Source: Candidatus Omnitrophota bacterium (GTDB lineage Bacteria > Omnitrophota > Gorgyraeia > Zapsychrales > JANLHA01). Taken from it: a DNA stretch of 32,000 nucleotides. The position numbers and the translations under genes are program-made. Every line of letters begins with the position of its first letter. The stretch's first letter is position 1. Of the stretch, positions 5,907 through 28,600 are shown piece by piece. The DNA lies in NCBI GenBank assembly GCA_963662715.1, contig OY759724.1, forward strand, positions 1,890,001 through 1,922,000, written 5' to 3'. The notes beneath the pieces are model-generated. The model made no database searches. It worked only from the letters and a program-made list of their open reading frames with translations, and was not told the DNA's origin.

Positions 5907-7571
<1,665 letters not shown>

Positions 7572-25624: not shown

Positions 25625-25644
25625 CTAATGTTATACGTCGTTCC
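25625..25644 (+). repeat. 20-nt direct repeat, copy 1, containing a core-site-like GTTATAC
   Basis: CTAATGTTATACGTCGTTCC matches 25951-25970 at 18 of 20 positions. GTTATAC is identical to the R' box of attC3. Confidence 0.6.
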
Positions 25645-25950: not shown

Positions 25951-25970
25951 CTAATGTTATACGACGTCCC
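25951..25970 (+). repeat. 20-nt direct repeat, copy 2, containing a core-site-like GTTATAC
   Basis: CTAATGTTATACGACGTCCC, lying 326 nt downstream of copy 1. Confidence 0.6.
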
Positions 25971-26052: not shown

Positions 26053-26128
26053 GTATAATGAAAAAAACACACCAAGGGAAGGGAACGAAATCCCCGCCCT
26101 TAGTCACGACGTAGAATAATTGTTATGT
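26053..26128 (+). repeat. possible degenerate attC (attC0) or attI-like junction ending in the first cassette boundary
   Basis: 76 nt from GTATAAT (one C-to-T change away from GTATAAC, the complement of the GTTATAC at 25956) to GTTATGT (26122-26128). There is an internal imperfect stem CCAAGGGAAGGGA / TCCCCGCCCTTAG. Only the R' end is well supported. Confidence 0.3.
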
Positions 26129-26688
26129 GTAAAATTATGAAAAATAATGGAATAAAAATATTTGGATTAGTTTTGTTGCTTATTGCATGGGGCGCTGATT
26201 ATTTCATACTTTCAAAAGCAAAAGAAAATCTGAAAAAAATTGAATTTGCGGTCGTAAATAGTGGGATCGTTGATAATAGCTCAAAGCTAAATTTTATAAA
26301 ATATATAGAGCAAGAAAGAATTGAACCCAAATTATTGAGTCTTTCATACAGGGATAAACTTGAGGGCATTGCAGCTACAACTCTACTTTTAAAACAATCT
26401 GGAATCAAACCTGACTCGATAGATTCAAACCTCCTTAATGAGATCAACGCATTATTAAGATTTGTTAATACCGCATATGACAATGGCTCTTCTTTGGAGC
26501 CAAAAGACATACAAAGGGATATTCGACATGAGATAGTTGTTCTCGAAAATCGAGTTCATAAATACCTCACTAAATGCCTAAAACAATCGAAGGATAAATA
26601 TAAAATATGGGATATTGTTTTTGTGGCAATGTATAGCATTGGAACAATTTTTTTGATTATCGGAGAAACTAAAGAAAAAAACACATAA
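26125..26688 (+). CDS. cassette 1: hypothetical 2-TM membrane protein
   Basis: 187 aa. N-terminal helix IKIFGLVLLLIAWGADYFIL and C-terminal helix IWDIVFVAMYSIGTIFLIIG flank a helical region of about 130 aa. ATG 26125 lies inside the R' box, and ATG 26137 is an alternative start. The TAA stop lies inside the R'' box CATAAC. Confidence 0.6.
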   Translation: MCKIMKNNGIKIFGLVLLLIAWGADYFILSKAKENLKKIEFAVVNSGIVDNSSKLNFIKYIEQERIEPKLLSLSYRDKLEGIAATTLLLKQSGIKPDSIDSNLLNEINALLRFVNTAYDNGSSLEPKDIQRDIRHEIVVLENRVHKYLTKCLKQSKDKYKIWDIVFVAMYSIGTIFLIIGETKEKNT

Positions 26689-26744
26689 CAAATCGTTCCA
26701 AGCGGAGCCAAAAGAGCGCGCGCTTGAGCTCTGGCGTTATGCAA
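26681..26744 (+). repeat. attC1 recombination site (about 60 nt)
   Basis: R'' is ACACATAAC (26681-26689) and R' is GTTATGCAA (26736-26744). The imperfect internal stem GTTCCAAGCG / CGCTTGAGC has one unpaired base. Confidence 0.7.
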
Positions 26745-26762
26745 GAAATAGAAAGGTAAAGG

Positions 26763-27710
26763 ATGATAGAAAAAGTTGATTTGCTCACAAGAGACAACTT
26801 GACTCGTCATATTAAAAAAAAGATCTCAAATTTATCCGAAATCTCAGACCTTGTTCCTACCAATCAAAATCTACTAATTTTGAAATCATTTTTGCCGCTT
26901 ATTGTAGCCTATTTCGAAGCATCTATAATTGATACTATAAAAGAATATTCATTGGCCAGACCTTATGAAATCGTAACATCAAAGAATGTAAAAGAGATAT
27001 TAAATGATAAGCGTTTCACACAAAATAGGGATAATTTTGAGGAAAAACAATTTGAAGAATACGTCTTAGAAGAATATCTTTCTCAGATCGAAAATCAATG
27101 CCTTAAAGATAAGATTAAGAAGCTTGGTGATTTGTTGCAAATAAAAGTTGACCTTGGTGACGAAAGCTGGGAGCAGATCAAAGAAATAGTCGCAAGAAGG
27201 AATTGTTTGATACACAATGATTTAATTGCAAATGAGGTTTATTTTAAGCAAGCTGGAGCACAAGCGAAAAAGACGTTAAAGATAGACATTCCATATCTTT
27301 TGGCGACTATTCAAATAGTGTCTACCTTTCTTTCGAAAATTCAAAAGAATATAGATGAAAATTATGGTTCAAATTCAGAAGTTGCCGCAATAGAGCGATT
27401 ATGGAATTATTTTTTTGAAGGTCAGTTTAAATTGAAGTTTAATGATTGTTGGCAAGAAGAAAGAGGACACGTTAGCTATAAGGGGCCGCAATTGGAAGGC
27501 TTGAAAGATTGCCATTCGCCGCGGACTATTTTTTTGTGGTCTGCATGGATGTCTTTTTTCAATGGTAGTGATCTAAAGAATTTTTATTCGATATTTTCTC
27601 TTAGCGAAGAAGAAAGGGAAATTTATTTAAATAAATTTATTTTCTTGATGAGATGCTTTGAGAAAATAAGTTTTCAATCTTTTAAGGTTCATATTTATGA
27701 TAAAAAGTAA
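26763..27710 (+). CDS. cassette 2: HEPN-like protein (RiboL-PSP/Abi-type Rx4H motif) with an unknown C-terminal domain
   Basis: 315 aa. EIVARRNCLIHND (R146-x4-H151, nt 27198-27215) lies at the end of an all-helical N-terminal half, as in HEPN nuclease domains. The C-terminal region of about 110 aa (Trp/Phe-rich) is not recognised. Confidence 0.45.
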   Translation: MIEKVDLLTRDNLTRHIKKKISNLSEISDLVPTNQNLLILKSFLPLIVAYFEASIIDTIKEYSLARPYEIVTSKNVKEILNDKRFTQNRDNFEEKQFEEYVLEEYLSQIENQCLKDKIKKLGDLLQIKVDLGDESWEQIKEIVARRNCLIHNDLIANEVYFKQAGAQAKKTLKIDIPYLLATIQIVSTFLSKIQKNIDENYGSNSEVAAIERLWNYFFEGQFKLKFNDCWQEERGHVSYKGPQLEGLKDCHSPRTIFLWSAWMSFFNGSDLKNFYSIFSLSEEEREIYLNKFIFLMRCFEKISFQSFKVHIYDKK

Positions 27711-27736
27711 TTTTGTTAATGATTTTGTTAAATTAA

Positions 27737-27800
27737 TTGCATAACAAACGCGTCCAGCGGACGCCGCTATGCGCCGCCAATGATGTGCAAGCGTTATGCT
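27737..27800 (+). repeat. attC2 recombination site (about 61 nt)
   Basis: R'' is TTGCATAAC (27737-27745) and R' is GTTATGCT (27793-27800). The GC-rich imperfect palindrome includes GCGG(A)CGC / GCGCCGC with a bulged A. Confidence 0.65.
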
Positions 27801-27817: not shown

Positions 27818-28519
27818 ATGAGTGAATCTGAAGAAATTGCTAAGGCTATCCAGCAGTCGGCCAAACTTGGAGAAAAGGGGTTAGATGTCGCAGAGAAAGC
27901 CGGTGGTTTCATTGCTAAAGTATTTAAGGAACCCATATCTGAAGTTAGTGGCCTAATTACAGACAAACTAAGGTTTGTACGTTGGAGAAGACTTGTTAAG
28001 ATGTCAGATGAAGTTAATCAGATTCTCATTGAAAAAGGAATCAATGAAACAAAAGCTGTTCCACCAAAATTAGCACTTCCGATTTTTGAGGACTCTTCAC
28101 TTGAAGATGACCAAGATATTCAGTCTTTGTGGAATCATCTCTTAGCAAATGCTATGAATCCTGAGTTTAATGATGAAATCAGGTTTGGCTTCATTGATAT
28201 GATTAAAAACATTACCGGAACCGAAGCACAACTACTTAATTCATTCTATGAAATTTTAAAAAGAGAAAATAAGCTTAATCCAGTTGAAAATATAAATCAA
28301 TACACTCTTACCAAAGAGCAGTTGATTCAAATTCTAAATATCTCAGTATCCAAATATGTGATATCAGCCCATAATTTGATGAGGATGCAATTGATTGAAC
28401 CTGCAATTCTAACCGGGGGTATTAGAATGGGATCGGAACCAGTTACAATATACAAAGGAATCGATGTTATTACTTTAACCCCTCTAGGTGTTAAGTTTAT
28501 TGAAGCTTGTATCAAATAA
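27818..28519 (+). CDS. cassette 3: Abi-alpha / DUF4393-like protein (abortive-infection-associated family)
   Basis: 233 aa. LITDKLRFVRWRRLVKMSDEVNQILIEKGI...PPKLALPIFEDSSLEDDQDIQSLWNHLLANAMNPE matches my recollection of the DUF4393 pattern (..W...N......A...L...G....P.KL..P.LE.AS.E.D..LQ..WA.LLA.A..). RBS GGAG at 27808-27811. Confidence 0.6.
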   Translation: MSESEEIAKAIQQSAKLGEKGLDVAEKAGGFIAKVFKEPISEVSGLITDKLRFVRWRRLVKMSDEVNQILIEKGINETKAVPPKLALPIFEDSSLEDDQDIQSLWNHLLANAMNPEFNDEIRFGFIDMIKNITGTEAQLLNSFYEILKRENKLNPVENINQYTLTKEQLIQILNISVSKYVISAHNLMRMQLIEPAILTGGIRMGSEPVTIYKGIDVITLTPLGVKFIEACIK

Positions 28520-28600
28520 AGCATAACAATCGCATTCAGAGCGAATTCACCCGCCGCTCCTTCGTCGCTCTGGGTGAATCGCCTGATGCCTGCGTTATAC
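28520..28600 (+). repeat. attC3 recombination site (about 80 nt)
   Basis: R'' is AGCATAAC (28520-28527) and R' is GTTATAC (28594-28600). Unpaired 4-nt spacers (AATC / CTGC) flank the stem. The left arm 28532-28552 pairs with 28572-28589, leaving three unpaired left-arm bases, as expected for attC extrahelical bases. Confidence 0.8.

Follow-up and report, generated by a model that had tools for sequence, protein, structure and literature searches.

The cassette array at the end of a 32,000-nucleotide (nt) stretch of DNA from a Candidatus Omnitrophota bacterium (contig OY759724.1 of assembly GCA_963662715.1, positions 1,890,001 to 1,922,000 of the forward strand; hereafter the window, numbered from its first letter) contains a one-gene mobile cassette, cassette 2. 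Its product combines a predicted RNase domain of the HEPN superfamily with a C-terminal domain that is specific to its own family. The open reading frame (ORF) lies at 26763-27710 on the plus strand, starts with ATG, encodes 315 amino acids (aa) and is preceded by a Shine-Dalgarno-like GAAAGG (26751-26756, plus strand) 6 nt upstream of the start codon. The protein is quite probably an RNA-targeting conflict effector, acting either in defence or as a toxin. A narrower reading, drawn by analogy with characterized systems, has a slightly better than even chance, namely that of a lone abortive-infection (Abi) or growth-arrest effector serving in defence. The new elements are the C-terminal domain, its obligate fusion to a HEPN domain and its presence in cassette arrays carried by uncultured anaerobic phyla. 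Within the protein itself, novelty is restricted to the C-terminal domain and the fusion, since the family of the HEPN half has been catalogued since 2013.

The N-terminal two thirds of the protein are assigned to the HEPN superfamily, as a domain of the RiboL-PSP-HEPN type that covers about residues 10-200 (26790-27362, plus strand), as delimited by a Pfam match and the secondary structure of the predicted model. The profile HEPN_RiboL-PSP (PF18735) matches residues 17-159 to positions 6-166 of its 191 model positions, with an E-value of 1.7e-7 and 31.8 bits, above the curated gathering cut-off of 28.4 bits. Besides PF18735, a Pfam search up to E 10 returned only three matches (E 0.25-0.37), all far under their own cut-offs. 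NCBIfam gave no match, and PHROGs gave a single weak match to an entry of unknown function (E 0.0037). None of the Abi_C, Abi_2, AbiD/F, AbiJ, AbiU2, AbiV and AbiA-CTD profiles of Pfam and PADLOC matched the protein. The matched region includes the Rx4H catalytic-type motif RNCLIH, from R146 to H151, at 27198-27215 of the plus strand (R146 codon 27198-27200, H151 codon 27213-27215).

An AlphaFold2 model built on 48 sequences (predicted local distance difference test score, pLDDT, 85.6; predicted template modelling score, pTM, 0.84) consists entirely of helices as far as residue 200, followed by further helices and one beta-hairpin (230-239). The first two predicted helices span residues 10-33 and 37-65, the second carrying the invariant D57 and E61. 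After a helical insert (67-125), helix 3 (134-151) ends at H151 of the Rx4H motif, and helix 4 is kinked into two segments (154-163 and 176-200). This predicted topology agrees with the published description of HEPN domains, in which an Rx4-6H motif lies where helix 3 ends and an acidic residue in helix 2, inserts are frequent between helices 2 and 3, and helix 4 is sometimes kinked (PMC3710099). RNase activity is predicted for the domain, with R146, N147 and H151 as putative catalytic residues, and two copies of the protein probably pair to build the active site, as in other HEPN RNases.

The HEPN half appears to be a separable module, since a 220-aa protein from an uncultured Enterobacteriaceae metagenome-assembled genome (MAG; locus L013) has the motif, as IRNCLIHND, but lacks the C-terminal domain. 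This protein aligns to residues 50-157 with an hhalign probability of 93.6%. The initial annotation of the window, made from the letters of the DNA, had described a 315-aa ORF with an all-helical N-terminal half, HEPN similarity and an RNCLIH motif at 27198-27215. The coordinates prove exact, the helical prediction holds up to residue 200, and the HEPN similarity is supported by the 31.8-bit profile match.

A search of 5.8 billion clusters recovered 53 relatives with 40-71% identity, all of them metagenomic. Most (47/53) are complete, at 315-327 aa with 99-100% query coverage, and the remaining six are shorter (224-308 aa). A broader profile contributed just two additions, from Paucidesulfovibrio gracilis DSM 16080 and Pseudodesulfovibrio sp. 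F-1. Homologues are confined to uncultured or anaerobic bacteria, and the carriers among species representatives belong to Omnitrophota, Thermodesulfobacteriota, Latescibacterota, Auribacterota and Prolixibacteraceae (Bacteroidota), a rare and patchy distribution across five phyla.

In an alignment of 48 sequences, the invariant residues around the motif are R145, R146, C148, H151, N152 and D153. When four divergent members with 23-24% identity were added (19 sequences), the invariants comprised R146, N147, H151, W214, F218, F226, W230, S252 and F266, so that R-N-x3-H is the sole invariant polar motif of the extended set. The importance given to R146 and H151 in the initial annotation is thus upheld, both residues being invariant in the 48 sequences and down to 23% identity. 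Both halves of the protein are under purifying selection: the ratio of nonsynonymous to synonymous substitution rates (dN/dS) is 0.16-0.40 in pairs with unsaturated synonymous change, and the constraint is the same on the N- and C-terminal halves (median dN/dS 0.228 vs 0.227). One homologue (L029, 1458-2416) is cut short by a premature stop after 188 codons, beyond which the homology goes on, and is likely an inactivated copy.

These patterns bear on the proposal that the protein is a non-toxic accessory for RNA binding or processing, or that its HEPN domain binds a ligand, with no part in biological conflict. Some HEPN proteins do have housekeeping or binding roles (PMC3710099). However, the R-N-x3-H motif is invariant, the distribution is rare and patchy across the five phyla, and the gene is confined to mobile cassettes or toxin-antitoxin arrays. 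Its low GC content is also foreign to the host (0.33-0.38 in the cassette array vs ~0.50 in the adjoining core genes). A non-toxic role is consequently regarded as improbable.

The C-terminal domain comprises residues 203-315 (27369-27707, plus strand) and is predicted to fold into helices and the beta-hairpin at 230-239. Its profile, compared with 1.84 billion cluster representatives, matched 13 proteins. Eight of them are 256-325 aa long, with the domain at their C-terminal end, and the other five are fragments of 49-129 aa. The HEPN half was present in every full-length match examined; in this collection the domain was never seen with another partner or as a complete lone protein. In the divergent homologues P0059, P0061, P0062 and P0064, the motif R-N-x-L-[ILV]-H is kept upstream of the C-terminal domain.

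The initial annotation had recognized nothing in this region, and wider searches agree with it. Pfam, NCBIfam, PHROGs and PADLOC all gave no match to it, and the profile of the domain found one chance-level match among PDB sequences (IleRS, E 0.045). A Foldseek search of a separate model of the domain (pLDDT 79) against the PDB gave nothing significant, with a best E of 3.9. The possibility of a degenerate second HEPN domain was considered and rejected, the N-half and C-half reaching an hhalign probability of only 0.1%. The invariant residues are mostly aromatic (W214, F218, F226, W230 and F266, plus S252), and the S-P-R and C229 positions are lost in the divergent branch. For this reason, the domain looks structural or binding rather than catalytic. 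As it has no catalytic-looking motif, its role is most likely to hold the nuclease in a latent state, to sense a trigger or to mediate assembly.

The sole significant structural match of the whole protein is A0A8S5NVI2 (BFVD), a 311-aa protein of Siphoviridae sp. ctiPM17 (E 1.1e-6, probability 1.00, template modelling score 0.59/0.60 over 310 columns, 18% identity). From the comparison of the predicted models, this phage protein appears to share the entire two-domain architecture, a relationship that is undetectable by sequence searches. It is tentatively suggested, at well below even odds, that the C-terminal domain could be an undescribed sensor or autoinhibitory module that makes a one-polypeptide Abi system, in which case A0A8S5NVI2 would mark a wider family exchanged between phages and cassettes. 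If true, the protein would offer a minimal model of how a lone HEPN nuclease is restrained and triggered without a partner.

The boundaries of cassette 2 are set by two attC-type sites on the plus strand, found by pattern match. The site of the upstream cassette (26683-26742) has the core motifs R'' ACATAAC and R' GTTATGC, with 6/7 complementary positions, and its R' core forms the 5' boundary of cassette 2. The site of cassette 2 itself (27739-27799) has R'' GCATAAC and R' GTTATGC, complementary at 7/7 positions. These are taken as inverse-core and core sequences of the RYYYAAC ... GTTRRRY type. The pattern TAACAA-N(30-60)-GTTATGC occurs twice in the whole window (26686-26742 and 27742-27799), compared with a chance expectation of 0.02, and both matches bracket the ORF. 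Integron crossover falls between the G and TT of the GTTATGC core. From this established position, the ends of the cassette are placed at 26737 and 27793, giving a cassette of 1057 bp (26737-27793, plus strand) made up of a 26-nt leader, one ORF and its own attC. A third attC-type site at ~28521-28599 closes the next cassette.

The folding of these sites as single-stranded DNA (ssDNA) was compared with that of shuffled sequences, giving z-scores of -0.05 for the upstream site, -0.75 for the cassette 2 site and -2.75 for the third site. In both flanking sites the cores pair in the ssDNA fold, though with an energy no better than that of shuffled sequences. Their designation as attC sites is therefore based on their core motifs, their geometry and the conservation boundaries of homologues, and not on their folding energy. 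There is no space for a second gene between them, so that the initial description of a cassette with attC on both sides and no partner within it is sustained. The presence of a type III-like RNA antitoxin with tandem repeats was rejected because the cassette contains no repeats and its leader is only 26 nt long. An Rfam search gave no match.

The limits of conservation among homologous loci lead to the same cassette boundaries. In a subgroup of 322-aa proteins, nucleotide similarity starts abruptly at (G)TTATG, 36 nt upstream of the ATG, and at nine of ten aligned loci the stop codon is embedded in TCATAAC. The gene can thus be considered a one-gene mobile cassette, because its conservation starts at the GTTATG core and its stop codon lies inside the next TCATAAC. 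Judged on sequence, this boundary pattern is as would be expected for integron cassette recombination. Furthermore, three loci (L009, L018 and L019) carry a near-identical palindromic site (z -5.5 in L009), and their sequences diverge right after the attC.

The downstream sites are more heterogeneous. A strict test requiring six of seven core pairs is passed by 4/19 loci, vs 10.7% of control segments, and no recognisable downstream site is left in L001, the Omnitrophota copy with 71% identity. It follows that not every copy has a demonstrable attC. Because so few loci pass the strict test, the cassette status across loci is based on the conservation boundaries; a palindrome-based attC detector flagged mostly generic palindromes.

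In four loci (L016, L023, L026 and L027), GTTATG lies ~125 nt upstream of the ATG and is followed by a conserved leader. This leader may represent a promoter carried by the cassette, a leader peptide or the remnant of a gene located upstream. Part of it resembles a peptide's C-terminal end (..ATDIERKKVNFIDQV*), but stop codons interrupt it in L026.

The neighbourhood of the gene was compared in 20 distinct loci, by all-against-all BLAST of the ORFs of at least 60 aa located within 3 kb of it. No conserved neighbour was found across them, the sole exception being an unrelated pair present in two loci, and the candidate of a conserved partner gene was rejected because no neighbour is common to the 20 loci. 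Outside the window, the neighbours include AbiEi, DUF4238, RelE, NYN, Fic and ParD/ParE proteins. In a Thermodesulfobacteriota MAG (L004, 4581-5959), two ORFs are located directly upstream of the gene, one of 265 aa (DUF7669 + NucS_C) and one of 194 aa. They are arranged with little spacing and with no obvious attC between them, and the pair is not kept beside the gene elsewhere.

HEPN toxins often come with MNT or other antitoxins. It might accordingly be thought that the protein is one component of a two-part system and has its partner in another place, such as an antitoxin acting in trans, the adjacent Abi_alpha cassette of the window, or a small RNA or peptide encoded in the leader. This frequent association, the ~125-nt leader kept in one subgroup and the two upstream ORFs of L004 speak in its favour. 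However, no neighbour is shared by the 20 loci, Abi_alpha is not adjacent to the gene in other loci, and the cassette of the window has a leader of just 26 nt without internal repeats. Moreover, the restriction of conservation to the cassette indicates that the gene moves alone. Taken on these data, a partner elsewhere is very unlikely.

The protein can be compared with several known groups of HEPN proteins. RiboL-PSP-HEPN is described as a bacterial family distantly related to AbiD/AbiF (Anantharaman et al. 2013, PMC3710099). The protein shares with it a profile score above the gathering threshold, an Rx4H motif with N after R, and the acidic residue of helix 2. However, it has neither the endoRNase L-PSP fusion nor the conserved ParB operon, the contexts from which that family takes its name, and it bears a C-terminal domain that hidden Markov model searches found nowhere else among the 1.84 billion representatives. 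A faint HTH_ParB match was obtained on the upstream gene at the L001-L003 locus.

Integron cassettes encoding HEPN proteins have also been described. Esos (Vibrio cholerae), Taranis (AbiJ-like) and an AbiU2-HEPN protein of Vibrio mimicus are carried by cassettes of Vibrio chromosomal integrons, which reportedly make cells resistant to phages, with arrested growth or lysis when the multiplicity of infection is high, and resistance to T4 and T7 has been reported for the V. mimicus cassette (bioRxiv 10.1101/2024.07.02.601686; 10.64898/2026.03.17.712381). Like them, cassette 2 consists of one gene in which HEPN is the sole recognisable feature; the likeness to Esos is by description only. It differs from them in its HEPN family, in its hosts, Omnitrophota and other anaerobes, and in the extra C-terminal domain. 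An 'Integron cassette HEPN' family of Gammaproteobacteria (PDB 3jrt) has been known since 2013 (PMC3710099). In both cases an integron cassette carries the HEPN domain, but the present protein has no sequence similarity to PDB chains at E up to 10, 3jrt is not among its Foldseek matches, and both the HEPN family and the architecture are different.

Two further groups can be compared in terms of function. In lactococcal abortive infection, AbiD, AbiD1 and AbiF (the Abi_2 family) are single polypeptides of ~340-370 aa with a HEPN nuclease, each sufficient by itself as an Abi system. The cassette protein is likewise a single protein with a HEPN domain; it matches no Abi_2 or AbiD/F profile, and its non-HEPN part is unrelated as far as testable. 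The HEPN-MNT and RnlA/LsoA toxins use a HEPN RNase as a growth-arresting effector, the role proposed here by analogy, but no MNT, RnlB or Dmd-like partner gene accompanies the cassette protein. RnlA is the top, non-significant PDB fold match of the C-terminal domain, the fold matches having E 3.9-6.7, which is noise level.

In the proposed mechanism, the protein would act alone, with low-level expression provided by read-through transcription. Dimerisation would form the composite RNase site, and the nuclease would be held inactive. The most evident candidate for restraining it, sensing the trigger or mediating assembly is the C-terminal domain. When a phage infects or a related stress arises, cellular or phage RNA might then be cleaved, and growth would stop. 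RNase activity, dimerisation, the trigger, the C-terminal role and the anti-phage phenotype are all put forward by analogy with better-known HEPN effectors. The defensive function is suggested by the distant kinship described between RiboL-PSP-HEPN and AbiD/AbiF and by the published HEPN cassettes. It is also supported by the neighbours, which are Abi or toxin-antitoxin cassettes (Abi_alpha/PDC-S47 and PIN in the window).

Several results weigh against the reading of a lone HEPN defence effector. PF18735 is reached at E < 0.01 by only 5/19 family members, which places the family at the periphery of this profile. PADLOC identified no known defence family, with weak matches to IetS (3e-4 over 70 aa) and RTasHEPN (0.029), so that the HEPN defence candidate of the initial annotation lacks a counterpart among the defence families catalogued there. 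Foldseek found nothing significant for the full model in the PDB (best E 0.2), where the matches were 14-3-3 and designed helical proteins and the HEPN domain of RnlA appeared only at E 4.7. Using the query and the divergent homologue P0064, tblastn found no match in 50,697 phage and 72,556 plasmid records, and a scan of IMG/VR revealed no relative. In addition, no sigma-70-like promoter was detected inside the cassette leader, in a scan that was not enriched over shuffles, and the gene may thus be poorly expressed in place. Finally, neither an integron integrase nor an attI is present in the window, where the sole recombinase is an IS110-family transposase. The array is thus of the CALIN type (an attC cluster without integrase), as far as visible.

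A more radical proposal is that the HEPN assignment is wrong, that Rx4H is peculiar to this family and belongs to a helical fold unrelated to HEPN, and that the protein has a function of some other sort. The PDB offered no significant fold match, nor any sequence match to the full-length profile at E up to 10, and most members fall under the Pfam threshold. However, the Pfam match lies above its cut-off and spans 160 of 191 model positions, motif included. Moreover, five members match PF18735 independently, and both the topology and the acidic residues of helix 2 fit HEPN. The predicted structure thus gave a divided answer to the initial proposal of a HEPN four-helix core, the order of helices agreeing with it and the fold search yielding no significant HEPN match. 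The HEPN call is supported by the Pfam profile together with the motif and the order of the helices, rather than by a fold match, and an unrelated fold is extremely unlikely.

The neighbouring genes can also be taken to favour a stress-dormancy or addiction-type RNase toxin without any specific link to phages, which would slow translation during stress or penalise loss of the array. Such a role was proposed in 2013 for HEPN integron cassettes (Anantharaman et al., PMC3710099). The neighbours are often classical toxin-antitoxin cassettes (PIN, RelE and ParDE), and the premature stop of L029 is as expected of a costly gene. However, an addiction module depends on an unstable antidote, which is neither found here nor conserved among loci. 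Furthermore, the comparable single-gene HEPN cassettes that have been tested acted as phage defences. A toxin unrelated to phages is therefore rated as unlikely, and the preferred explanation is a lone Abi or growth-arrest effector.

That a defence cassette can consist of a single HEPN gene is not a new idea, being known from Esos and the AbiU2-like cassette. The initial suggestion of a new system consequently stands for the C-terminal domain and its fusion, and not for the HEPN half, already catalogued, or for the general principle, single-gene HEPN cassettes active against phages having been published. Integron arrays are recognised stores of compact anti-phage systems, nearly all the tested ones coming from Vibrio or from clinical mobile integrons. 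The family of the present cassette belongs instead to uncultured anaerobes of Omnitrophota, Thermodesulfobacteriota, Latescibacterota, Auribacterota and Bacteroidota. If the protein is active, the catalogue of one-gene HEPN defences would be extended, and a small (315 aa), partner-free system would become available to study how a single polypeptide keeps HEPN toxicity in check. Should it prove inactive or simply toxic, it would be one more hypothetical cassette protein.

The window itself is divided into two regions. Core chromosome genes on the plus strand occupy 1-25.4 kb and include those for a pseudouridine synthase, uvrB, coaX, IMPDH, dnaE, hisS, aspS, a LysM protein, phoH, an HD-domain membrane protein, recO, a 2-hydroxyacid dehydrogenase and YceI. 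The encoded AspRS shares 84-86% identity with proteins from Candidatus Omnitrophota MAGs. Co-oriented cassettes follow from ~25.5 kb onward, and the array continues past the window end. The last core gene is separated from the first cassette ORF by an AT-rich non-coding stretch, in which a 20-nt direct repeat, CTAATGTTATACG(T/A)CGT(T/C)CC, occurs at 25625-25644 and 25951-25970, with copies 326 nt apart. The repeat holds a GTTATAC core, and no integrase was found near it. The pair may be the sign of a cassette without an ORF or of an attI-like remnant.

Cassette 2 is preceded on the plus strand by a cassette gene for a 187-aa protein with hydrophobic N- and C-terminal segments (26125-26688), which has no Pfam or PADLOC match. 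It is followed by the gene of a 233-aa Abi_alpha protein (27818-28519, plus strand; PF14337, E 1e-21; PADLOC PDC-S47, E 7e-13). PDC-S47 is a candidate single-gene system of PADLOC, and this cassette is akin in kind to the published Abi-alpha-like 'Belisama' cassette of Vibrio cholerae. Next comes a gene for a 196-aa protein (28613-29203, plus strand), again without Pfam or PADLOC match. Further downstream, a two-gene cassette encodes a VapB-like antitoxin (30926-31122, plus strand) overlapping a PIN toxin (31119-31514, plus strand; PF01850, E 4e-11), and the attC-like sites on either side of it are longer and of another type (30785-30858).

Two copies of an IS110-family insertion sequence (IS) (DEDD_Tnp_IS110 + Transposase_20), 99% identical to each other, are inserted in the array. 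The first occupies ~29217-30470, with its transposase at 29385-30437 on the minus strand, and the second extends from 31527 to the window end. Both copies are located directly after the TAACAA(C/G) of an attC site, and the remainder of the first interrupted attC picks up again at ~30470-30545. The element looks like a member of the attC-targeting IS1111 subgroup. The IS end downstream of the transposase (29240-29260 and 31550-31570) contains the segment GTCAAGCATAAAATAGAAAGG, which is alike at 17/21 positions to the R' core and leader of the HEPN cassette, GTTATGCAAGAAATAGAAAGG (26736-26756). The same segment is identical over 16 nt to the leader GCATAAAATAGAAAGG (5975-5990) of the Omnitrophota homologue with 71% identity (L001). 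This resemblance could be due to chance, or could reflect a target-mimicking guide segment in the non-coding end of the IS.

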